64,000 bases of DNA from Actinomycetota bacterium (GTDB lineage: Bacteria; Actinomycetota; Thermoleophilia; RBG-16-64-13), in NCBI GenBank assembly GCA_012514635.1, contig JAAYZX010000122.1, forward strand, positions 3,449-67,448. Reading direction: 5' to 3'. Below, one piece after another: positions 39,006 through 56,261 of this stretch (positions are counted from its first letter, which is position 1; each line of letters begins with the position of its first letter). A program made the translations under genes and the position numbers. Below the pieces are notes generated by a model, which saw only the letters and a list, made by a program, of their open reading frames with translations, was not told the DNA's origin and searched no databases.

Positions 39006-40445
39006 CTATGCAAAGGACTGAGTTCGGGCTGAGACCGACGCTCGAAATCGATCACCGATCTGCCTCAAGTCGTAGATCTGGTACTTACGAGGCACCAGAA
39101 CATTGAACTTAAGCTGCTTTTCCAGTTCCCGCCTCAAGGCTTCGATGGCCTGCAGTTCCCCGTGCACCAAAAAAGTGGCCTTAAGAGACTCGAAGTGCGA
39201 CACCCAGTCCAGCAACTGTCCGCGATCGGCATGAGCAGACAACCCGGGCACAAAATGCACCTTGGCCTTCACTGCGATCTCCTCACCAAGGATGCGGACC
39301 CGCTCCACACCATCCTGCAACCTGCGGCCCAGCGTACCGCACGCCTGGAAACCCACAAGCACCACATGGTTCTGCGGCCGCCACAGATTGTGCTTTAGAT
39401 GATGTCTGACTCTGCCGGCCTCAGCCATACCACTGGCAGAGATGATCACGATCCCCTCCTGCCCGTTGAGATTCCGAGACTCCTCCACTGATTGCGTGTA
39501 GTGTAAATAGGGAAAGTTAAAGATAGAGCCGCCTTCTTCCAGAATATCGAGGGCCTCTTCGTCAAAGACGTCGCGATGCCGCCGGTACACCTTAGTGGCT
39601 TCGTGCGCCAGCGGGCTGTCCACAAAGACAGGCATGGACAACTTGCGACTTTCATAGAGATCGCGGAGAAAGTAGACCACTTCTTGCGTGCGACCCACAG
39701 CGAAACTAGGGATGATGACGTTTCCACCAAAATGCTGGGCTTCCTCCAATATGGCACCCAGCTGCTCCACAGGATCTCCTTCCTCGTCGTGCCGGCGGTC
39801 ACCGTATGTCGCCTCCATAACTAGGTAGTCGGCCTCGGTGATAGGCTCCGGATCACGGATTATGGGTTGACCCGGCTGACCCACATCTCCGCTGAACACC
39901 ATTTTCGTCTCACCGCCGTCCTCGCTCAACCATAGCTCGGTGAAAGCGGATCCCAGGATATGTCCTGCGTCGGAAAAGCGACCCCGTATCCCTGCCAGTG
40001 GCCGGAATTCTTCCCCGTAGGGAACACTGCGGAACAAGCGGATGGCTTCCTCAGCGTCGGCGCGTGTGTAGAGAGGATCACGGACACGACGACCTGCCCG
40101 CCGCGCCTTGCGGGTGCGCCACTCGGTCTCACTCTCCTGTATGTATGCTGAATCCAGGAGCATGATCCGCGCCAGATCGACCGTGGCGGGCGTGGCGAAG
40201 ATATCACCCCTGAACCCCTCCTTGACGAGCTTGGGGATGAGCCCTGAGTGATCTACATGGGCATGGGTGAGGATGATGAAATCGATATCTGTGGGATCGA
40301 AGGGGAAGGCATCATAATTGCCGGCACTCTCTTCCACCCCTCCCTGACGAAGCCCGCAATCCACAAGAAATCGTGTAGCACCTACCGCCATCAGGAAGCA
40401 CGAGCCGGTCACCTCTCGGGCCGCACCGCAGAACTGAATCTCCAT
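39006..40445 (-). CDS. Beta-CASP family ribonuclease (MBL fold, RNase J / CPSF-like)
   Basis: MEIQFCGAAREVTGSCFLM ... ILTHAHVDHSG ... MEATYGDRRH ... SAHADRGQLLDW (beta-CASP motifs). The start is set at the Met of MEIQF, because the ORF-track start at 40688 adds 81 non-conserved codons. Confidence 0.75.
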   Translation of the reverse strand: MEIQFCGAAREVTGSCFLMAVGATRFLVDCGLRQGGVEESAGNYDAFPFDPTDIDFIILTHAHVDHSGLIPKLVKEGFRGDIFATPATVDLARIMLLDSAYIQESETEWRTRKARRAGRRVRDPLYTRADAEEAIRLFRSVPYGEEFRPLAGIRGRFSDAGHILGSAFTELWLSEDGGETKMVFSGDVGQPGQPIIRDPEPITEADYLVMEATYGDRRHDEEGDPVEQLGAILEEAQHFGGNVIIPSFAVGRTQEVVYFLRDLYESRKLSMPVFVDSPLAHEATKVYRRHRDVFDEEALDILEEGGSIFNFPYLHYTQSVEESRNLNGQEGIVIISASGMAEAGRVRHHLKHNLWRPQNHVVLVGFQACGTLGRRLQDGVERVRILGEEIAVKAKVHFVPGLSAHADRGQLLDWVSHFESLKATFLVHGELQAIEALRRELEKQLKFNVLVPRKYQIYDLRQIGDRFRASVSARTQSFA

Positions 40446-40663
40446 ATACCCTCCCCAAGCCGTTGGCCGCCCCGTTGACCACACTATTCTCCCACTCGGC
40501 GGTGACAGGTTACACCTCCGTGCCCGCAGTGCCGCTCGGCGCGCAGAACCCGTTGCCGGCCTCCAATAGACGAGGATGAAACCTCTTTCCGCAATCGCCG
40601 AGGCAATCGCTGAGGTTTTGTGAAACCACACGCACAAAAATACTGTTTGACTCACAGCACTAT

Positions 40664-40683
40664 AAGTGATAGTTCTGTCACTT
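40664..40683. promoter_or_regulatory. 20-nt imperfect palindrome (16/20) in the divergent acs / ribonuclease intergenic region; candidate operator
   Basis: AAGTGAtAGttcTgTCACTT, overlapping a TTGACA hexamer at 40682-40687. Confidence 0.3.
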
Positions 40684-40845
40684 GACATTAAGCCTCGTTT
40701 TCATCCGGCCAGAGTGCAAACCGGCGAGGTGCGCGGAGGTGTCGTCTGATATACTTTGGCCGCTTCTTGGCCCTGCCGACCTTGATCCAGGTTGGCCTCG
40801 GGCGCGGTTTCGGCGTGGCAACAACACCAGCGGAGGACAAAAGAG

Positions 40846-46713: not shown

Positions 46714-48093
46714 TCAGCCACGACGCGAATCAAGCAGCTTCCGCTTTGCCGGCGACGCTAAGCCCCCCTCCGGGACCACCTCCATATTGACCTGCAGGCC
46801 GGAACGTCGCACGGCAGGAATCATCTCAATGCGCTCGATCATCGCCTTCAACTCCACATCCGGCGGTTCAGCGCACACTTCCACCCATAGCATCAGCCCG
46901 GAACTTCCCTCCGGCGGCGTAGCCCCCGAGACCTGCGCTCCCCCTTGGACCAGCTCAGCGGAAAACGCGACCACCCATCCCGCGCCATACACCGTCTCAT
47001 CCAAATCAGCCATGGTCAGCCGCACCCCGGCAGTAGGCTCCACTGCGTCCTGCAGCCGCCCCTGTACACGATCCAGACAGCGCAGCACACTGCCACATAC
47101 GCAAGGGCGTTGCAATAGCTTCCCGCTGTCGCCTGTGCGATACCGGATGAGAGGCATGCCCCGCCGGGTGAGGGTGGTCACCACCAGTTCGCCCGTCTCA
47201 CCCAACGGAAGCACTTCGCCTGTTCGCCGGTCTATTACCTCAAAGATCAGGTCGGCCTCGCGAATATGCAGTCCCGAAAACGCCTGACACTGTACCGCTC
47301 CACCCAAGCCGGTCTCGGTGGATCCGTAGTGCTCAAATACGGAGCAATCCCAAGCATCTTCGACGGCCGTCCGCAAAGAGGCCGCCACGTAGTCGCCCGA
47401 GAACAGCACCGCCTTCACCCGACCGGCAGGAACTGTGCGACCCGCCCGGCTCCGAGCCAGTCGCAGCATCTGACCGGGCACTCCTACCAAGCAATCGGCC
47501 TCAAACTCCAGGATGTGCTGCACGGCCGGTCCACAGTCATTCACGAACCCGTGAACTTCTACCTCCACCCCATCCCTAGCCAACCCCCTATTCAGAAGAT
47601 CCCCCACGCTCCCCGGAATGGCGCCCGGCATGAAGACGAGTACCCGCTGTCCACGTTGAACGAGAGCGCGCATCCCGTGGCGGAAGTGGTCGATGGTGAG
47701 CTCAAGATCGTCCTCGGTGAACCAGAGACGTTTCGCGACCCCCGTGCTGCCCGAGGTGCGAATGGTGACAACTCGGGCGATGTCACTTTGCGAGACGCAT
47801 ACAAAGTCCAGACCACGCCTGCGCAAATCCTCTTGCTGTACGAAGGGCAGACGCCCAAGATCGCTCAGTCTCTGCGGTGTGTCTGGTGGCAGATGTTCAT
47901 AGAGATCACGATATAAAGGGCTCCGGTCGCGGGACCAAGCCACAACTTCACGCAACTGAGCAAGTTGCCAATGCTCAAGGTCGGATCGAGACAAGGGAAC
48001 GCCGGATGAGGCGGCTTTTGCGGCCTTCTGGGCATCACCCCCCACGCCGATCCGCCGAGCCGTCCATTCGTCGAGCGGGGTGATGGGGATCAT
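46714..48093 (-). CDS. PaaK-like / coenzyme F390 synthetase-like adenylate-forming ligase
   Basis: TSGSTGVAKR, YGSTETG and YRTGD motifs in a roughly 430-aa PaaK-type architecture. It overlaps the upstream radical SAM gene by 4 nt. Confidence 0.8.
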   Translation of the reverse strand: MIPITPLDEWTARRIGVGGDAQKAAKAASSGVPLSRSDLEHWQLAQLREVVAWSRDRSPLYRDLYEHLPPDTPQRLSDLGRLPFVQQEDLRRRGLDFVCVSQSDIARVVTIRTSGSTGVAKRLWFTEDDLELTIDHFRHGMRALVQRGQRVLVFMPGAIPGSVGDLLNRGLARDGVEVEVHGFVNDCGPAVQHILEFEADCLVGVPGQMLRLARSRAGRTVPAGRVKAVLFSGDYVAASLRTAVEDAWDCSVFEHYGSTETGLGGAVQCQAFSGLHIREADLIFEVIDRRTGEVLPLGETGELVVTTLTRRGMPLIRYRTGDSGKLLQRPCVCGSVLRCLDRVQGRLQDAVEPTAGVRLTMADLDETVYGAGWVVAFSAELVQGGAQVSGATPPEGSSGLMLWVEVCAEPPDVELKAMIERIEMIPAVRRSGLQVNMEVVPEGGLASPAKRKLLDSRRG

Positions 48094-49478
48094 GGTCCGC
48101 CGGTGGTCGTTCTGAGATAGAGCCTCTTGCCGGATTCGCTGGTCAGGTTCCAGAGGCAGAATGGAATCAATCCCCTACCAGGCACAAGCGCGTGCACGCA
48201 GCAGCGGCGTACACGCTCCAGATCCAGATCCCAGGCATCTTGGAAGAGCATGCCCGACACGGCCAGGATTCGGCCGGCGGCTTCTAGGAAGCGATCGAGA
48301 TCGTCGCACGCTGCGCCTGCCGTGTCGCCCTTGTCAGAGCCGTAGTCGCCGACGTAGTCATTGCGGCCGACCGGACCGAGGCTCCATTGCCGCGCCGTGG
48401 CTGCCACGGCGCGGCGCGCGGCCGAGCTGAGCTCGGCCGCGCACGCTCCCGTCTCCGAGCGAACGAGTTCCAGACGACCATCCTCCCGCACCCAGTACCG
48501 CGCACGGAAGGAGCAGCGCACATGCTCGCAGCTACTCGGCTCAAAGTCGTCCGCCTTTATTCGGCTACCCGTCTGGCTCTCCAGGGCCCGCAGGATCTCG
48601 GGCAAAGTGAGTCTGGGTCGTTCCCCGACAGGATATCGGCCAAAGTAACTCACCGGCTGAAAGTGAACCCCCCGCACCACCCCCGCCCACTCCGTAGCGA
48701 AATCCACCAGCGCCCCAAGTTCTCCATCGTTGACCCCGGCCACCACGGTCGACACCAACACCACCGCCAACCCCGCTTCGGCGCAGCGCTCCACCGCCCG
48801 TAGCTTTTCTGCACCAAAAGCCCTTCCTCGTATGGCGCGGTGCGTGGCATCCATGAGACCGTCGAACTGTAGAAACACCGACACCAGCCCCGCATCGCGC
48901 AGTTTTTCAGCGTATTCGAGCTCCTGGGCCAGACGCAACCCATTGGTGTTCAGCTGCACAAACGCAAACCCGGCAGCGCGCGCCAAACTAATGATATCCG
49001 GGAGATCGGCACGCAGCGTAGGTTCACCACCGGAGAGCTGCAGATTCACCGATCCCTGCATAATGAAGAGATCCCGCAGCGTCGCCTCAAGTTCACGGAG
49101 CGACGGATCAGAACCAGGAGTATCGGGACGACTCTCCGCAAAGCAGATGGGGCAGACGAGGTTGCAGCGCCGAGTGATCTCAAGTACCGCCGTACAGGTG
49201 GACTGCTGGTGCTCCGGACACAGACCACAGGCCAGAGGGCAGGCCGACGGCGTCGACAACACCGCTTCTCTCGGAACGGAACAGCTTACAGTGCCCTTAT
49301 CCGCACACCAGGCACGATAAGATGGGGGACCGCTCCAAATCAGGGTGCTCCACATGCCGTGATCCGGGCAGTGCCCCTCCAGCCTGACCTCCTCCCCTGC
49401 GAAGCGCCGCTCGGCGGGCACTCGAGCTAGGCACACAGGACAGAGGCTCTCGGTGGGCTCCCGCTCGTCAGACTTCAC
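48090..49478 (-). CDS. Radical SAM enzyme with N-terminal zinc-ribbon
   Basis: N-terminal CPVCLARV...GHCPDHG, then the radical SAM motif ITRRCNLVCPICF with the glycine-rich LSGGEPTL. There are extra Cys residues at the C-terminus (RRCCVHALVP...FCLWN). Confidence 0.8.
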   Translation of the reverse strand: MKSDEREPTESLCPVCLARVPAERRFAGEEVRLEGHCPDHGMWSTLIWSGPPSYRAWCADKGTVSCSVPREAVLSTPSACPLACGLCPEHQQSTCTAVLEITRRCNLVCPICFAESRPDTPGSDPSLRELEATLRDLFIMQGSVNLQLSGGEPTLRADLPDIISLARAAGFAFVQLNTNGLRLAQELEYAEKLRDAGLVSVFLQFDGLMDATHRAIRGRAFGAEKLRAVERCAEAGLAVVLVSTVVAGVNDGELGALVDFATEWAGVVRGVHFQPVSYFGRYPVGERPRLTLPEILRALESQTGSRIKADDFEPSSCEHVRCSFRARYWVREDGRLELVRSETGACAAELSSAARRAVAATARQWSLGPVGRNDYVGDYGSDKGDTAGAACDDLDRFLEAAGRILAVSGMLFQDAWDLDLERVRRCCVHALVPGRGLIPFCLWNLTSESGKRLYLRTTTGGP

Positions 49479-49914
49479 GTGACTCGGTGGGGTCGAGGCC
49501 GTGTTCCATCAGGATGCTCATGGCCTGCATATACGCTTCTGCTACGATGGGTCCGCACCGTTCCGTGCTTGGGGTGCCGTTGCCAAGGATATCATTGCAC
49601 CTCACTCCCCCATATCGCCCGCCGATCTCTGCCTGGAACCACTCCTCCAGCTCGCTCAACATAAGCAGTAGGTCCTCGTGTTCTTCCTCGTCGTCTCGAC
49701 CCTTGGCCGCATACAACGCAATAAGGCACGCAGCTCCCGTCAGGCTTCCACATACTCCCTCACCCCTGCCACCTCCCAGAGCCAACCCGCCTACGGCTCG
49801 TATGAGATCTGGGTTGTTTTTGCCCTGGGCTTCCAGGCCCATTAAGAGCAGGATCTGGCTGCAGTAATAGCCTTTCCGCGACAGGTCCATCATGTGCATT
49901 CGTGTCTCGTCCAT
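49468..49914 (-). CDS. C_GCAxxG_C_C family putative redox protein
   Basis: YCSQILL ... GVCGSLTGAACLIALY ... RCNDILG ... CGPIV, matching the C...CGxxxG...C...C pattern of that family; 148 aa. Confidence 0.75.
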   Translation of the reverse strand: MDETRMHMMDLSRKGYYCSQILLLMGLEAQGKNNPDLIRAVGGLALGGGRGEGVCGSLTGAACLIALYAAKGRDDEEEHEDLLLMLSELEEWFQAEIGGRYGGVRCNDILGNGTPSTERCGPIVAEAYMQAMSILMEHGLDPTESREV

Positions 49915-49935: not shown

Positions 49936-50700
49936 TCAGGTCGAAACCCGTTCGGCCACAAGCAGGAAGTAGCCGGGCCGAACTGCCGCGATCGCCTCGC
50001 GACACGGAGCACCATCTCCCAGCGCCGCCTTCCAGAAACGGGCGGCCGACCCGTAACTGAAGATCATGCGCGCTATAAAGACCTTGAGGGCGTGGGAACA
50101 GTCACGCCACACACGCACAGAAAAACCCGCATCTCTCAGTCTGGAGATGGTGACCTCTTCATTTACGGCGCCGCACAGACAGGTGTTCGCAGACGTTCGC
50201 TCCACCCAAGTAGTGACTTTTGCCCAATCAGTGCCATCAGAGTCTCCAACCGGGCCCCGGAGATAGACGTCGGTTATAGCCACGATCCCCCGAGGACGCA
50301 GCACCCGGCCAATCTCACCGAGAGCCCGCTCCGGATCGCCAAGCGTGCTGATAACGCACTCGGCAAAGACGACGTCGAAGAACCCGTCGGCGTAGGGAAT
50401 GCGTTCCGCCTGCCCCTCCACCCAGGTTACGTCCTCTCGTCTGGCCTGCGCTTCGGCCAGGCGAGAGACCGAGCAGTCGAGACCCACCACCTCCGCCCCC
50501 CACGCGCGGACCAGATATGCTGCCGTAGATCCCGTACCACATCCCAGATCGAGTACCCGCCAACCCGATTGCAGTCCGCACGCAGCCGCCAACTCTTCCG
50601 TCAGCTCTAAGCCTCCCGGCCTGAGTTCATCTCCAACAGCCTCTCGAAATGGGGCCTGCACCCACAGTCCGGAGGTTGTTGCGCACCTACTTGTCTTCAA
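49936..50700 (-). CDS. Class I SAM-dependent methyltransferase
   Basis: VLDLGCGTGSTAAYL motif I, followed by DVVFAEC; 254 aa. Confidence 0.8.
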   Translation of the reverse strand: MKTSRCATTSGLWVQAPFREAVGDELRPGGLELTEELAAACGLQSGWRVLDLGCGTGSTAAYLVRAWGAEVVGLDCSVSRLAEAQARREDVTWVEGQAERIPYADGFFDVVFAECVISTLGDPERALGEIGRVLRPRGIVAITDVYLRGPVGDSDGTDWAKVTTWVERTSANTCLCGAVNEEVTISRLRDAGFSVRVWRDCSHALKVFIARMIFSYGSAARFWKAALGDGAPCREAIAAVRPGYFLLVAERVST

Positions 50701-50902
50701 GGATTTGTTCCACTTCGGCCATGCGCCCGGTGGCCAGTTCCTCGGGGATGAGATAAAGGCCGCAATCGGGACAACGTGGCAACTCGAGCGTGAACGAATT
50801 TCCCAGATAGGTCAACTCCACGGGGCCCACTTCCAACGGACGTGAACAACGGCAGCACATCCAGCGCAGATCGTCCTCGGACAAACGGGCAATACTCGCC
50901 AT
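50687..50902 (-). CDS. Small 4-Cys zinc-ribbon protein (71 aa)
   Basis: CCRC ... CPDC pairs. It overlaps the downstream methyltransferase gene by 14 nt and abuts the upstream gene stop. Confidence 0.5.
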   Translation of the reverse strand: MASIARLSEDDLRWMCCRCSRPLEVGPVELTYLGNSFTLELPRCPDCGLYLIPEELATGRMAEVEQILEDK

Positions 50903-50903
50903 G

Positions 50904-53297
50904 TCACACCTGCCGTTCTACAGCCATGCGATGACTGTAGGCATTGTGCACTTCGAACCCCGAATCTCGGAGTGAATATTCCACCCAAAACGTGACGGCG
51001 CGAGGCCGGAAGAAGGCCAGAAAGTGCCCCGACGAATCGTGACAGAGTTTCTCTTCCGTATGTTCTGCGTGATATATCGCCTGTTGTATATCCTCCACCA
51101 AGATGCGGCGCGTGTCCAACAGGGTCTTAACTTCGTCCGCGATGATCAGTTGCACTTCCTGCCAAGGTTCCAAGGCTCCGCCTCCTTCGTTCCACAACTC
51201 CCTCAGCAGCCGTGCCTTCAGCCGGGCACGGTTCTCCCGTCGCTCGGACCAACCCGGTCTGCGTCTGCCTGCCGGATCCTCCTCCGTTGGATAGATGAGA
51301 TCGAGCACGTGCAGAATCCGCTTGCCTTGCGCTGCCAGACTGTCCCGGCACATGGCGCAATAAGTTACGTATTCCAGCGGGCTCTCTGCGCTGCGTCGTA
51401 CAGCCACGGCCGCCGCGAGCTGTGGGTTGGCGTTGGCCTGAAGGCCACCGTAACCGCAACACCCCGTGATCTGTCCCGACAACGCCAACTCCTCGATGGG
51501 CTGATCCAAATGTGCCAGCAATCTACGGACGCTCTGCTGCACATGCGTGCGATCCCGAGTAGTGCATGGGTCATGAAGCCCCCGCGGCAAAAGTGTAGGT
51601 CCTCCTGCACCCACAGTGATTCCCGTCTCTTCCATGATTTCGCTTAGAAACACATGGGTGCCTGTTCCCAAATGCGGAGCCAGAACGTCTTGGCAGGTAG
51701 GGCATGCAAAGATGAGCATCGGATCGCCCAGGCGATGCCGCTCCCTCAGAATGTCGGCGAGCCCCTGCCCAAACAAATCTTGCCTTCCTGCCCAGGTAGG
51801 AGGCGCGCCGCAACAATCCAGGATGAGACCTACGCCTCCTGTCAACTTCCCACGCAGATACTCGTAGACGGCCTCCACCTGAGCAGGGTTGGAGCCGGCC
51901 AGTTGACAGCCGGGGAAAAAGGCGTAGGAGCAACGCTCGCGTCCCGGTTCAGTGCGCGCAAGCACGAAGGCCGCCGAACGACTGAACGCGTAATCCTCTA
52001 GAGCAAACTCGTGAGCCGAGGGCGGCATCTTGCCCCTCTCCACCATCCCGCGCCGCGCCTCCAGACAGAGATCGGCCATGGAAAAATTCTCCGGACACAC
52101 CGCAGTGCAGAGACCGCATAACATGCATGAGTTGATGAGGCGGTTGGCTTTGTGCTCGCCCTGTACGATGGCTGCGTTATTGTAGATCTCGCGGGCGTAC
52201 CGACGTGGGTAACTACCGAAATGATGGAGATAATCACAGACTTTGACGCACTCAAGGCATTCGCAGCGCAGACAACGATCCGCCTCCTCTTGGGCTTCCT
52301 CCGCCGTGTACGCACCTCCCACGTCTTCGGGTTCGATCGACGGCAGCGACTCCACCCTCGCCAAGCTCACAAAAAGACGAGTGGGCTGAGGACCCTCCTT
52401 CTCCCGCGCAGCTGTGAGCGAAGCTCCCTGAAGGAAACGATCTATCGACACGGCAGCCCGGCGACCTTGGAGCGCCAAACCTACAGGCGACACCCTCCCC
52501 CCCGATGAAAGGCCGTCTCCCGTGGCCGAGCCTCCGCCCGGTGTCGCTTCGTCGCCCGCGAATACGCCCTCCCACTGGGTTGCCAAAGTTTGACGATCGT
52601 AGGGGAGCACCGGCCGGCCGTCGGGGCCCACGCCTGCCGGTTGCAACTCTTCCTCACCCCCCTCCACGAATACGGCAGCGAACTCTGCACGCAACTCCTC
52701 CAACGAGGGAGACTCACCAAGACGGAACTCCACTCCCAGAGCAGACAGCGCCGCCACCTCTGCCGCTACGACTTTCGGCGGAAGCAGTTCCGGCGGAAAC
52801 TGCAGGAGCCGGCCGCCGGCCGTTTCATAGGAGTCGAACACTGTAACGGGATGACCCTTGCGGACTAGATCGGAGGCCGTGGTTAGGCCGGCCAACCCCG
52901 ACCCCACCACCGCCACCCGCGCGTCACGACGCGGCAGGATCAGAACCCGATGGGTAGGGGCAGGCCTCGTCACACATGCCCGTTCCAGTGCCCCTATGCG
53001 CACGGCGTCACCGCGCTCGCGGCGCCTGCAGCGCAACTCGCAGGGATGATCACAGATCCGCCCCAGGATACCGGGGAGCGGCATGGTCTTGCGGAGAACC
53101 TTCCACGCCCCATCCCAGTCTCCCACCGCCACGGCCATAACGAACGAACGGGCGTCTACGTGCAGCGGACAGGCGGCGACGCATTCTGCCGGTTCTTCCT
53201 GTATGCAGCGGCGCTCGAATTCACGCAGTCGGGACTGTTCCATGGCCGGTTCCTCGTAGGACATCGTCGGGGGCCCGCGGAGCGGGCCCCCGACCAC
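50904..53297 (-). CDS. Fused oxidoreductase: GltD-like FAD/NAD(P)-binding module + 2x[4Fe-4S] ferredoxin + HdrD/GlcF-like CCG domain
   Basis: N-terminal CIQEEPAECVAACPLH...RICDHPCELRC, the dinucleotide fold VAVVGSGLAGLTTASDL, ferredoxin motifs CLRCECLECVKVCDY and CMLCGLCTAVCPE, and CCG motifs LILDCCGAPP, FACPTCQ and GCCGYGGL. Confidence 0.8.
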   Translation of the reverse strand: MVGGPLRGPPTMSYEEPAMEQSRLREFERRCIQEEPAECVAACPLHVDARSFVMAVAVGDWDGAWKVLRKTMPLPGILGRICDHPCELRCRRRERGDAVRIGALERACVTRPAPTHRVLILPRRDARVAVVGSGLAGLTTASDLVRKGHPVTVFDSYETAGGRLLQFPPELLPPKVVAAEVAALSALGVEFRLGESPSLEELRAEFAAVFVEGGEEELQPAGVGPDGRPVLPYDRQTLATQWEGVFAGDEATPGGGSATGDGLSSGGRVSPVGLALQGRRAAVSIDRFLQGASLTAAREKEGPQPTRLFVSLARVESLPSIEPEDVGGAYTAEEAQEEADRCLRCECLECVKVCDYLHHFGSYPRRYAREIYNNAAIVQGEHKANRLINSCMLCGLCTAVCPENFSMADLCLEARRGMVERGKMPPSAHEFALEDYAFSRSAAFVLARTEPGRERCSYAFFPGCQLAGSNPAQVEAVYEYLRGKLTGGVGLILDCCGAPPTWAGRQDLFGQGLADILRERHRLGDPMLIFACPTCQDVLAPHLGTGTHVFLSEIMEETGITVGAGGPTLLPRGLHDPCTTRDRTHVQQSVRRLLAHLDQPIEELALSGQITGCCGYGGLQANANPQLAAAVAVRRSAESPLEYVTYCAMCRDSLAAQGKRILHVLDLIYPTEEDPAGRRRPGWSERRENRARLKARLLRELWNEGGGALEPWQEVQLIIADEVKTLLDTRRILVEDIQQAIYHAEHTEEKLCHDSSGHFLAFFRPRAVTFWVEYSLRDSGFEVHNAYSHRMAVERQV

Positions 53298-53307
53298 AGC
53301 GTTACAG

Positions 53308-56038
53308 TTAGAGGGCTTTGAGTCCGGCCAGTACCTTTTCCGGCAGAGCGGGAAGGTGGGTGATCCTCACTCCGGTGGCATTTTTGATGGCATTAATGAC
53401 CGCCACGTGCGATGCCGTCAGCGGACACTCGCCCACACCGGCTGCTCCAAAGGGGCCGTTCTCGCGAGGACTCTCCACGTAGAGGAGCTCGATATCGTCG
53501 GGGATGTCCTCGGCATAGGGCAGACCGCACGAGACCATGGTTCTGTGCTTGGTCAAATCTTCACAGTCTTCGGAGAGCGCCAGACCGATACCCTGGGCAA
53601 TGCCCCCGTACATCTGGCCGTCCACCACCAGCTTGTTGTTGATTCTGCCCACGTCGGCCACAGCGGTGTACTTCTCTATCTTGGTCTTGCCCGTGGCCAC
53701 CTCCACCGCCACCTCGGCCATAAAGAGGCCGTACATGTATACGGAAAAGGGGCTGCCTTGGGCGTTCTCGTCACAGGCGGAGGCCATGGAAGCCGTGTAT
53801 TTGCCCGCATAACGGATGGCTATCCCCTCCGCCACCATCTCGTCATAGGTACGGAAGGACCCATCTGTCTTTTTCATGGCCGCCACCAACTGCTGACACC
53901 CATTCACGATGGCGTTGCCTGTGACCACCTGCTGGCGACTGCCTCCGGACGGGCCGCTATTAGGAGTCACGCCCGTGTCGTTCATGACCAGTTTGATACT
54001 CTCCGGCGCCAGACTCAGTGGGCGCAGAGCTTCATGCGCAGTGCCCAAGGCGCCCATGTCGGCCCCCTGGCCGTGATCTTCCCAGGAAACACCAAGCGTC
54101 ACACCGTCTTTGGTCAGCTCCACCCACACTTCGGAAGAGTCGGGACCATCGAGGCCGCACCCGTAGATGCCGAGGGAGACACCCACGCCCTTTTTGACGT
54201 TTGCCGTGGATTCTTTTTGAGCCTTCTCCAGCGCCGCCTGGTAGCGGGGACGCAGCAGATCGATCATCTCCGGGAAACTCCAGGCATCCGGGGTCTGACC
54301 GGTGGGAGTGGTGGCAGCGGCACGATATACATTCTTGTAGCGAAGCTCCAGCGGATCCACTCCCATCTTCTCGGCCAGTTCATCCATGAGGCTTTCAGAG
54401 GCCAGGAAGGCCTGCGGTGAGCCGTAGGCACGGAAGGCGCTCCCCCAAATATGGTTGGTGCATACGGTGCGGCCCACACCTCGAATAGCCGGGATGTCGT
54501 AGCCCGCTCCCATGTATTGTGCCCCGCGCAGCGTCAACAAGTCACCGAACTCGGAATACGGACCGTGGTCCACGGTCCAGTCGCTCTCCATGGCCAGCAA
54601 CTTACCGTCAGCGTCGGCCCCAAACTTAAGCCGTACGAAGAAGGGGGAACGCTTACCCGTATAGGTGATGTGTTGGAAGTAGTTGTAGCGCAGCGTTACC
54701 GGACGACCTGTGGCCATGCAGGCCACTCCCAGTAGGGCTTCCATGGTAGGCGAAAACTTGTAGCCAAAGGTGCCGCCGGCCGGGTTCTGTATCAAGCGCA
54801 GCTTATCCGGTTCCACGCCCAATCCGGGAGCGATCATGGCGTGGTGCAGGTGAATGCCGATGCTCTTGGAGTGAATGGTGAGGCGTCCTTCTTCGTCATA
54901 GTAAGCGAGACCCACATCCGGCTCGATGGTGAGGTGTGGCTGCCGTTGCAGATAGAATTCGTCTTCCACCGTATGGGTGGCGGCAGCCATAATGGGATCC
55001 GTGTCCTCGCCCTTGGCGATGTTCTGTTCAAAGTAGACGTTGGGCGTCCCGGGATGGATCTCAATGGCATCTTCAGCCATGGCCGCCGGTGCGCTCATAT
55101 AGGCGGGCAACACTTCCAAGTCCACCTTGACCTTGGCCGCCGCCGCCCGGGCGTGCTCCTCCGTATCGGCGCACACTATGGCCAGAGCGTCGCCGTATTG
55201 GAACACCTTCTCGTCGCAGAGGATGGGACGATCCCAACCGTCACCCTTGTTGGTAGCGAAGGTAATGAGGCCGGTGATACGGTTCTTTCCCTGTACATCC
55301 TTGTGGGTGATCACCTTGTAAACGCCGGGCATACTCTCAGCCTCAGCAGTATCAATAGAGCGGATGTTGGCGTGCGAAACTTCGGCCTGAGCCAGGGCCA
55401 TATGCAGTGAACCCGGCGGGAGCTTGAGTCCCAGATCGGCTCCGTAATCGATGGTGCCGCTAACCTTGGCCACCGCTGAGGGCCGTGGGTAGGCGCTGCC
55501 CCAGATCCGACCGTCGGCCGGCATCTTGAACTCGAGCTCGTCCTGTGGCATCTCACCGCGCAGCACCTTGGCGGCATCCATGACCGCATCGACAATAGGT
55601 TTATAGCCGTTACAGCGGCAGGCGTTGCGATGCGTCTGGAACCAGGCCCGGGTCTCCGCTCCGGTGGGATTGGGATTATCGTCGAGCAATACTTTAGAAG
55701 AAACTACAAAACCCGGCATACAGTAGCCGCACTGGGGCGCGCCATGTGTCACCAACGCCTGCTGCACCGGATGTAGGTTATCTGGAGTTCCGATACCCTC
55801 AACAGTGGTGATACGGGCGTCGTCGGGTACCCGGTTCATGCTGGTGATGCAGGAACGCACCAACTCGTCGTTGACGATAACGGAGCAGGCTCCACACTGA
55901 CCCTGCCCACACCCTATTTTGGTCCCCGTCATTCCCAACTGTGCCCTTAGGACATTGGCAAGATTGTCCTCAGGCTTTGCGACGATCGTCCTGGCGATAC
56001 CGTTAATGAAGAACTTTTTTTTGATCACCGACCGTGCC
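53308..56038 (-). CDS. mop: Molybdenum-containing aldehyde oxidoreductase (Mop-like, xanthine dehydrogenase family; 2x[2Fe-2S] + Mo cofactor domains, no FAD domain)
   Basis: The N-terminus KKKFFINGIARTIV...GCGQGQCGACSV aligns from memory with Desulfovibrio gigas MOP (MIQKVITVNGIEQ...GCEQGQCGACSV). The length is about 910 aa. The start is set at GTG 56038 with a GGAGAGAGG SD, because the ORF-track start at 56061 adds 8 aa. Confidence 0.9.
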
Positions 56039-56261
56039 CCCTCTCTCCTGCCGAGATTCACTTGAGCGAAGTGTCATTAGGGAAACGTATGGCTACATCC
56101 CCCTTTATTTCATCCTACCATGAGCAGTGATACACAGATTGTGGTCGACGGCAATATGTAGCTTGGATAATTGCAGGAGATTCAGCCCTCCTCAACGCAT
56201 GTTTCAGCACCCTATTAACGAAAGTGAGCCGCGAAACGCCGGTCGGGCACCCGCATCGGCT

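Follow-up and report, generated by a model that had tools for sequence, protein, structure and literature searches.

The gene described here lies on the minus strand of a 64,000-nucleotide (nt) stretch of DNA from an Actinomycetota bacterium (contig JAAYZX010000122.1, positions 3,449 to 67,448 of the forward strand; hereafter called the window, in whose coordinates all positions are given). It runs from a GTG start at 49478 to a TGA stop at 48090 and encodes a radical S-adenosylmethionine (SAM) protein of 462 amino acids (aa). Judged by its sequence, the gene is the cysteine (non-selenocysteine) form of trsS, and the TrsS family is the bacterial sister of the archaeal GDGT-MAS/Tes family. It belongs to a conserved cassette headed by a molybdopterin-dependent aldehyde oxidoreductase (AOR) of the MOP type. 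The best overall explanation, which we put forward with moderate confidence, is that of a Cys-form TrsS with GDGT-MAS-like properties acting in an accessory module of this AOR cassette.

The family identity and the architecture of the protein leave very little room for doubt. The gene (48090..49478) is assigned on the basis of its NCBIfam and Pfam matches, its match to the solved structure 7TOL and an AlphaFold2 model. The best NCBIfam match, at 562.5 bits (E 4.9e-169), is to NF045646, ‘radical SAM (seleno)protein TrsS’, whose curated cutoff is 490 bits, residues 9–454 of the protein being aligned with positions 3–440 of a profile of 441. The second-best match, NF045702 (tetraether lipid synthase Tes), scores 318.6 bits, under its curated cutoff of 450 bits, and its best stretch covers only profile positions 2–314 of 486. 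Other families are touched through the radical SAM core only: MoaA profiles reach 77–84 bits versus cutoffs of 231–325, the NirJ and PqqE profiles stay far under their cutoffs, and the SPASM-family NCBIfam profiles are confined to residues ~94–280 with 37–74 bits versus cutoffs of 265–725. No SPASM domain was matched by Pfam in TrsS, where the recognized domains are PF23545 (Zn_ribbon_HMPTM, residues 8–49) and PF04055 (Radical_SAM, residues 100–261). An original prediction, made from the letters of the sequence and their open reading frames (ORFs), had described a radical SAM enzyme that carries a ribbon at its N-terminus, a CNLVCPIC motif and extra C-terminal cysteines, a description borne out by the translation, the Pfam domains and the profile match. 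It had also stated that the architecture fits no well-known radical SAM subfamily that it could name; this statement fails, since the protein matches a curated family over its full length and, domain by domain, corresponds to the structurally and mechanistically characterized GDGT-MAS/Tes. The gene is a new sequence within an already curated family of known fold, and a claim of novelty cannot be upheld.

The name of the family reportedly comes from Haft and Tolstoy 2025, and it is already in use for individual proteins, as for the homologue P0117, which carries the NCBI name ‘radical SAM (seleno)protein TrsS’. Elsewhere naming is heterogeneous, some members being called ‘tetraether lipid synthase’ by the Joint Genome Institute (JGI) pipelines, while several other JGI names derive from HMPTM. 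Closest to the TrsS of the window is a metagenomic protein (P0001, 96% identical), and the nearest genome among the matches listed is a metagenome-assembled genome (MAG) of Gaiellales, with 66% identity. A 2026 review citing Haft and Tolstoy 2025 (mSystems 10:e0141724) includes TrsS/NF045646 among the known families.

Among solved structures, only that of GDGT-MAS (tetraether lipid synthase; Methanocaldococcus jannaschii MJ0619, 7TOL/7TOM) is closely related to TrsS, being matched with an E of 8e-78 over residues 7–315 and 397–445 at an identity of ~31%. The AlphaFold2 model built from an alignment of 69 sequences (mean predicted local distance difference test score 86, predicted template modelling score 0.88) is superposed by Foldseek on 7TOM over essentially its full length (template modelling (TM) score 0.77, E 8e-39), the next match being SkfB with a TM score of 0.41 and all others lying at or below 0.41. 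In GDGT-MAS, C9X2C12X20C33X2H36 binds a rubredoxin-like iron, while C73, C77, C80 and a His bind an N-terminal [4Fe-4S] cluster; besides these two metallocofactors the enzyme has the radical SAM cluster and a C-terminal [4Fe-4S] cluster with the labile ligand Met439, a sulfide of which captures the substrate radical as an S–C intermediate (PMC9433317). The residues of all four metal sites are found in TrsS. The rubredoxin-like Cys3His ribbon C13-x2-C16-x20-C37-x2-H40 (49359..49442), read in the translation as C13PVC16 ... C37PDH40, has a spacing identical to that of the GDGT-MAS iron site. It is followed by the N-terminal auxiliary [4Fe-4S] motif C80-x3-C84-x2-C87-x2-H90 (49209..49241; C80PLAC84GLC87PEH90 in the translation), which aligns with C73, C77, C80 and the His of GDGT-MAS, then by C95, and by the radical SAM motif C105-NLV-C109-PI-C112 (49143..49166) inside PF04055. 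In the C-terminal half, the segment C317-E-H319-VR-C322 (48513..48530) aligns weakly with the GDGT-MAS HQHC segment and is followed by C346 and by the C-terminal auxiliary-cluster block M410 ... C426 C427 ... C441 (48156..48251; RRC426C427 and FC441LW in the translation), aligned to GDGT-MAS chain residues 446–494; in the HMMER alignment M410 falls on the labile Met439, and C426, C427 and C441 fall on the RCC...FC block.

Conservation within the family agrees with this assignment and, together with the E of the profile match, speaks against a chance resemblance. In the alignment of 69 sequences, C13, C16, C37, H40, C105, C109, C112, C322, C426, C427 and C441 are invariant; the family also has an invariant C95. 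The metal-site residues align with those of GDGT-MAS and vary little or not at all across the family; the architecture is one already known. Several details of the original prediction have to be amended in this light. Of the two N-terminal Cys pairs that it proposed, the first (C13/C16) is genuine, while the second consists of C37 and H40. The ‘zinc-ribbon’ is present as a ribbon but, by comparison with GDGT-MAS, is most likely an iron site. The additional C-terminal cysteines would be ligands of a third cluster, with C322, C426 and C441 as the candidates (C317 being specific to TrsS). The prediction had also overlooked the CxxxCxxCxxH motif and the invariant C95, together with an 11-nt overlap upstream of the gene and a gene for a 71-aa protein at 50902..50687, both described below.

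The relationship to Tes has limits of its own. Tyr459 of GDGT-MAS lies 4.2 Å away from the lipid's terminal carbon atom and is strictly conserved in 1,000 archaeal homologues, whereas the aligned residue is A430 in the TrsS of the window and V, A, T, S, E or I, never Y, among 197 TrsS sequences. Because the score lies under the Tes cutoff and the Tes-invariant Tyr is replaced, sequence comparison indicates that TrsS is not Tes. The original prediction had named as its refutation a confident full-length match to a characterized radical SAM family whose substrate is known, and the results go only halfway towards this: the full-length match is to TrsS, and the match to Tes stays below its cutoff and lacks a residue that defines that family. 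Unlike GDGT-MAS, TrsS is bacterial, has extra family-specific cysteines (C95, C317, C345/346) and sits in a molybdenum aldehyde oxidoreductase cassette rather than among lipid biosynthesis genes. Its residues 337–396 cannot be aligned to GDGT-MAS by sequence, and the C-terminal third aligns only around the cluster ligands. The idea that TrsS lacks the helices of the GDGT-MAS lipid pocket was considered and dropped, the unaligned middle segment being merely ~13 residues shorter.

Since the family includes (seleno)proteins by name, the coding status of the window copy deserves mention. There is no in-frame UGA among the 462 codons of trsS, and the window copy is therefore a Cys form. Across the 81 loci compared (see below), no UGA was found aligned to a Cys in TrsS or in its neighbours. 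Homologues of 314–410 aa were examined as possible UGA-cut selenoprotein forms, an idea that was rejected: the translation of one such locus (L001) is an uninterrupted full-length ORF, and the starts had been mis-called. The sole internal stop is that of trsS in a Nitrospirota MAG (L062, ~1112–2434), which is in frame and aligned to Ser305/Gly, not to a Cys; in view of this alignment, it is probably a sequencing error or the mark of a pseudogene and not a selenocysteine (Sec) codon.

Variation within the family is informative about its individual cysteines. A CC dipeptide is typical at residues 345–346, where the window copy (48441–48446, minus strand) has A345-C346, a variant otherwise seen only in P0001, to which it is 96% identical; judging from this position in the alignment, residues 345–346 could be the Sec site in the selenoprotein members of TrsS. 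C317 and C427 (48528–48530 and 48198–48200) covary among 197 sequences, both being Cys in 163 and both non-Cys in ~26, with C317 alone lost in five and C427 alone lost in none. This pattern suggests that the two work as a pair beside the C-terminal cluster, joined in a disulfide or binding a common metal, and such a pair is absent from GDGT-MAS. In a subclade of 41 of about 197 sequences (homologues among P0032–P0081, plus P0087; 53–61% identity to the query), the whole N-terminal CxxxCxxCxxH auxiliary motif is gone, with the ribbon, radical SAM and C-terminal motifs kept; the N-terminal auxiliary cluster accordingly appears dispensable. The database also holds fusions of TrsS with two of its cassette partners described below, a CGCA–TrsS protein of 568 aa (P0041) and a methyltransferase–TrsS protein of 784 aa (P0120), which may be assembly or frameshift artefacts.

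In the window the cassette forms an operon of seven closely spaced genes, all on the minus strand, with trsS in sixth place. Each gene scores above its own NCBIfam cutoff, and the six partners of TrsS follow one another in the canonical order. The first gene (53308..56061) encodes the MOP-type molybdopterin aldehyde oxidoreductase (NF045668, 1658.8 bits; cutoff 1100), which matches Desulfovibrio gigas MOP (1SIJ/1VLB) over its full length with 1418 bits and is also orthologous to Desulfovibrio desulfuricans MOD. It is followed by a FAD/FeS/CCG protein (DICLUST; pyridine nucleotide-disulfide oxidoreductase/dicluster-binding; 50904..53297; NF045663, 983 bits; cutoff 530), in which Pfam recognizes Fer4_20, Fer4_17 and CCG and whose N-terminus is NfnB/GltD-like. 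The third gene (50687..50902) encodes a small Cys4 protein of 71 aa of the DVU_1557 family (DUF7479; NF045645, 96 bits; cutoff 60), the fourth (49936..50700) a SAM-dependent methyltransferase (MT) of the DVU_1556 family (NF045667, 224.6 bits; cutoff 155) and the fifth (49468..49914) a C-GCAxxG-C-C protein (CGCA) of the DVU_1555 family (NF045669, 165 bits; cutoff 103). The last gene (46714..48093) encodes a PaaK-like adenylate-forming ligase (LIG) of the DVU_1553 family (NF045666, 439 bits; cutoff 300), also matched to PaaK (2Y27) with an E of 3e-30. The junctions around trsS are tight: its 5′ end overlaps the stop of the upstream 148-aa CGCA gene by 11 nt, and its own TGA stop shares an ATGA with the ATG of the 459-aa ligase gene (48090..48093; tcat on the plus strand), as the original prediction had noted. 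The partners between DICLUST and trsS are conspicuous for conserved cysteines, five in CGCA, four in the DVU_1557-family protein and an invariant Cys115 in MT.

Two of these partners call for comment in their own right. The gene of the 71-aa protein corresponds to an ORF missing from the original list; its product has two CxxC pairs and belongs to a redox-protein family, and a homologue is found at the same position in another locus (L001). The end of this gene overlaps the annotated TTG start of the MT ORF by 14 nt, and on account of this overlap the true start of MT may lie further downstream. The methyltransferase itself contains an invariant Glu-Cys (ECV, residues 114–115) and a Cys174 that is 80% conserved in a C..GA context, and its second-best NCBIfam match is an arsenite methyltransferase subfamily (71.8 bits). 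We take Cys115 and Cys174 to resemble the arsenic-binding cysteines of ArsM/AS3MT, a likeness that the PDB search does not favour: its matches are methyltransferases of a general kind, none of them an arsenite methyltransferase at E ≤ 1e-8, so that an ArsM-like role was set aside and is kept as a weak lead only.

The conservation of the cassette was followed in contigs representing one genome per species. A single-sequence scan for TrsS relatives gave no match, and an alignment-based scan succeeded, with at least 570 species containing a relative, the best 80 loci of which were studied. These best loci come from Actinomycetota, Desulfobacterota, Bacillota (Negativicutes, Peptococcaceae, Clostridia), Chloroflexota, Nitrospirota, Acidobacteriota, Spirochaetota and others; they are mostly from MAGs, and many belong to lineages known as anaerobes. 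When the window proteins were used as tblastn queries against 81 loci, LIG was found in 77, CGCA in 75, MT in 70, DICLUST in 69 and AOR in 62, many of the misses being due to contigs that are too short. The order AOR-DICLUST-MT-CGCA-TrsS-LIG, on the same strand, is almost always kept. Where trsS and the ligase gene are adjacent (70 pairs), they overlap by 4 nt in 31 cases, and in most of the others the stop and the start lie within 20 nt of each other. Together with the presence of the ligase after TrsS in 77 of the 81 loci, these overlaps support the functional link to the ligase that the original prediction had drawn from the ATGA junction.

A reciprocal sample was centred on the oxidoreductase. 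Among metagenome contigs encoding proteins with 58–77% identity to the AOR of the window, 30 loci extend at least 7.5 kilobases (kb) downstream of AOR; DICLUST is present in all 30, CGCA in 28, TrsS and MT in 27 each and the ligase in 26, so that TrsS is found near ~90% of MOP-type AOR loci (27/30). Loci with fewer components also exist. Two of the genome loci (L004 and L016) contain AOR, DICLUST and TrsS without MT, CGCA or ligase nearby; one AOR locus (L114) has AOR-DICLUST-CGCA-ligase-XdhC without TrsS or MT; and two (L084 and L116) have AOR-DICLUST only. The most constant neighbours of TrsS are hence the oxidoreductase pair (AOR and DICLUST), the ligase being usual but not obligatory, as the two ligase-less loci indicate. 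On this synteny we regard a functional tie between TrsS and the oxidoreductase as very likely.

The cassette is often larger elsewhere. A gene for an XdhC-family ‘aldehyde oxidoreductase maturation factor’ (NF045664) lies near trsS in 59 loci, and other neighbours include a DVU_1551 MocA-HD nucleoside triphosphate (NTP) transferase (NF045665), a CobC-like histidine phosphatase (42 loci), a MoeA-like protein (26 loci) and a NifS-like desulfurase (12 loci). In loci of Sporomusa, Fusibacter, Negativicutes and Spirochaetota (L073, 6345–9951; L012; L030; L039), four genes are inserted between the CGCA gene and trsS, which encode the XdhC-type factor, the MocA-HD protein, a NifS/selenocysteine-lyase-like protein and a 104-aa protein without NCBIfam match. 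In this respect the window differs from the full cassette seen elsewhere, with its XdhC-type factor and DVU_1551 NTP transferase: XdhC, MocA-type (DVU_1551 NTP transferase), NifS-like, MoeA-like and CobC-like genes were searched for and none was found in the 64 kb.

GDGT-MAS serves as the model for a sketch of how TrsS might act. SAM would be cleaved by the radical SAM cluster in its reduced state, the resulting 5′-deoxyadenosyl radical would take a hydrogen from an unactivated carbon of the substrate, and a sulfide of the C-terminal cluster, which is capped by Met, would hold the substrate radical until a C–C or a C–S bond is formed. Chemistry of this type is reasonably probable for TrsS. From its genomic context, the substrate would not be an archaeal-type lipid but would be tied to the MOP-type oxidoreductase system. 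TrsS, its Cys-rich partners and the ligase would then constitute an accessory module for the oxidoreductase system rather than a free-standing catabolic enzyme, and its task would be to produce or attach a group, linked through sulfur or carbon, on which that system depends. Such a role is supported by the interleaving of the module with bona fide maturation genes of the molybdenum cofactor (Moco), by the Cys-rich partners and by the natural TrsS fusions; we lean towards an accessory or maturation role over a small-molecule pathway, but tentatively. A more specific version, according to which TrsS with MT, CGCA and the ligase would build or install on AOR or DICLUST a labile organosulfur group (or a Se-linked group in Sec species), by radical trapping on its C-terminal cluster, with the group being lost on classical purification, seems to us rather unlikely.

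The oxidoreductase to which the module would be devoted has peculiarities of its own. According to a review, the Desulfovibrio AOR is anomalous in its family in needing no sulfido ligand, and it has no flavin domain, a flavodoxin having been proposed as surrogate. The FAD/FeS/CCG protein may be the physiological electron-transfer partner of AOR; being universally adjacent (30/30 AOR loci), it is a more obvious candidate than the flavodoxin. Known radical SAM systems offer partial parallels for the module. LipA, BioB, MiaB/RimO and NifB perform S–C bond chemistry and have, close to the active site, an auxiliary [4Fe-4S] cluster one of whose ligands is labile or not a Cys, and NifB–NifX resembles TrsS in its association with Cys-rich scaffold-like partners, but at the level of sequence TrsS is a member of none of the LipA, BioB, MiaB/RimO and NifB families. 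Mss, the bacterial membrane-spanning lipid synthase reportedly due to Sahonero-Canavesi et al. 2022, is like TrsS an anaerobic radical SAM enzyme, one that joins unactivated alkyl carbons; unlike TrsS, it has no link to an AOR gene, and by its description as remote from Tes it is set apart.

Several observations weigh against an accessory module built around GDGT-MAS-like chemistry. For native AOR of D. gigas and D. desulfuricans, the structures solved at high resolution are described as containing only Mo-molybdopterin cytosine dinucleotide (MCD) and two [2Fe-2S] clusters, which makes a stable extra cofactor or modification of AOR unlikely. TrsS is not nearby in three of the 30 AOR loci, and it is from alignment that C322, C426 and C441 are taken to be cluster ligands. 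No experiments on TrsS were found in the accessible literature, nor anything relevant on the cassette or its DVU locus tags. Finally, a ligase and a methyltransferase are typical small-molecule enzymes, and a reading as a pathway fits them equally well. In such a pathway, which corresponds to the model of the original prediction, the ligase would adenylate or CoA-activate a carboxylate, perhaps the product of AOR, TrsS would modify it radically (C–C coupling, cyclization or thiolation) and MT would cap it. The ATGA coupling in the window, the presence of the ligase after TrsS in nearly all loci with frequent 4-nt overlaps, the intactness of the ligase as a PaaK homologue and the conversion by AOR of aldehydes into carboxylates, established for D. 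gigas MOP, all speak for this possibility. Yet in L004 and L016 TrsS accompanies AOR-DICLUST without ligase, MT or CGCA, which weakens the case for the ligase product as substrate of TrsS, while the L114 AOR locus keeps CGCA, ligase and XdhC without TrsS; moreover, the genes found interspersed in the module are those of Moco maturation and not of catabolism, and the cassette contains no conserved transporter or further catabolic genes. The pathway is therefore possible but, in our view, doubtful.

Two further alternatives start from the names in the databases and appear far less probable. One sees in TrsS a bacterial Tes that joins the alkyl-chain termini of two membrane lipids into membrane-spanning lipids (brGDGT-like or diabolic-acid-type). 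The full-length fold and all four metal sites are indeed common to TrsS and GDGT-MAS, some members are called ‘tetraether lipid synthase’ by JGI pipelines, and a hypothesis in the literature credits bacterial homologues of Tes with the synthesis of membrane-spanning lipids (PMC13159169). The same source notes, however, that the enzyme confirmed in bacteria is Mss, a remote relative of Tes at most, and that the tested producers of diabolic and iso-diabolic acids have no Tes homologues except for three of 14 Acidobacteria (PMC13159169). When the score of 318.6 bits (cutoff 450), the missing Tyr459 throughout the TrsS family and a context that is invariably an aldehyde oxidoreductase cassette devoid of conserved lipid genes are added, lipid synthesis by TrsS becomes very improbable. 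The other alternative follows the annotation of MJ0619 as HMPTM (7,8-dihydro-6-hydroxymethylpterin dimethyltransferase) and would have TrsS modify the MCD of the neighbouring AOR. It finds an echo in the Pfam ribbon domain and the several JGI names derived from that annotation, in the position of a pterin-dependent enzyme at the centre of the cassette and in the MocA, XdhC and MoeA-like genes that accompany it elsewhere. But the D. gigas AOR structures, entry 1VLB among them, are reported with an ordinary MCD, and the pterin methylase activity of MJ0619 was not corroborated by Lloyd et al. (PMC9433317); a pterin substrate is hardly to be expected.

The cassette is flanked by housekeeping genes: one flank encodes leucyl-tRNA synthetase, an EamA transporter and acetyl-CoA synthetase, and the other an SLH protein, UvrB, CoaE and ribosomal protein S1. 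The GC profile is even across the region and gave no genomic-island signature, and searches of the cassette for Rfam families (e.g. a Moco riboswitch), promoters and terminators returned nothing above background. Elsewhere in the window, at 39006–40688 on the minus strand, an ORF for a beta-CASP/RMMBL metallo-beta-lactamase RNase (RNase J-like) has, when read from its first ATG, an exceptionally long N-terminal extension of ~80 residues ahead of its first Pfam domain, and its start is probably over-called.

As for what these results mean, TrsS is a widespread family, present in at least 570 species in a single scan, and the gene of the window does not represent a new kind of enzyme. The annotation of its members is inconsistent, alternating between tetraether lipid synthase and pterin methyltransferase. 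Because TrsS genes are locked into the AOR cassette and their products lack the substrate-site Tyr of Tes, they should not be counted as markers of membrane-spanning-lipid synthesis. For the classical Desulfovibrio aldehyde oxidoreductase, the cassette points to the FAD/FeS/CCG protein as the likely physiological partner and to an accessory module that is tractable in Desulfovibrio strains, and the reduced versions of the cassette (L004, L016, L114, L084 and L116) could show which of its components depend on which.

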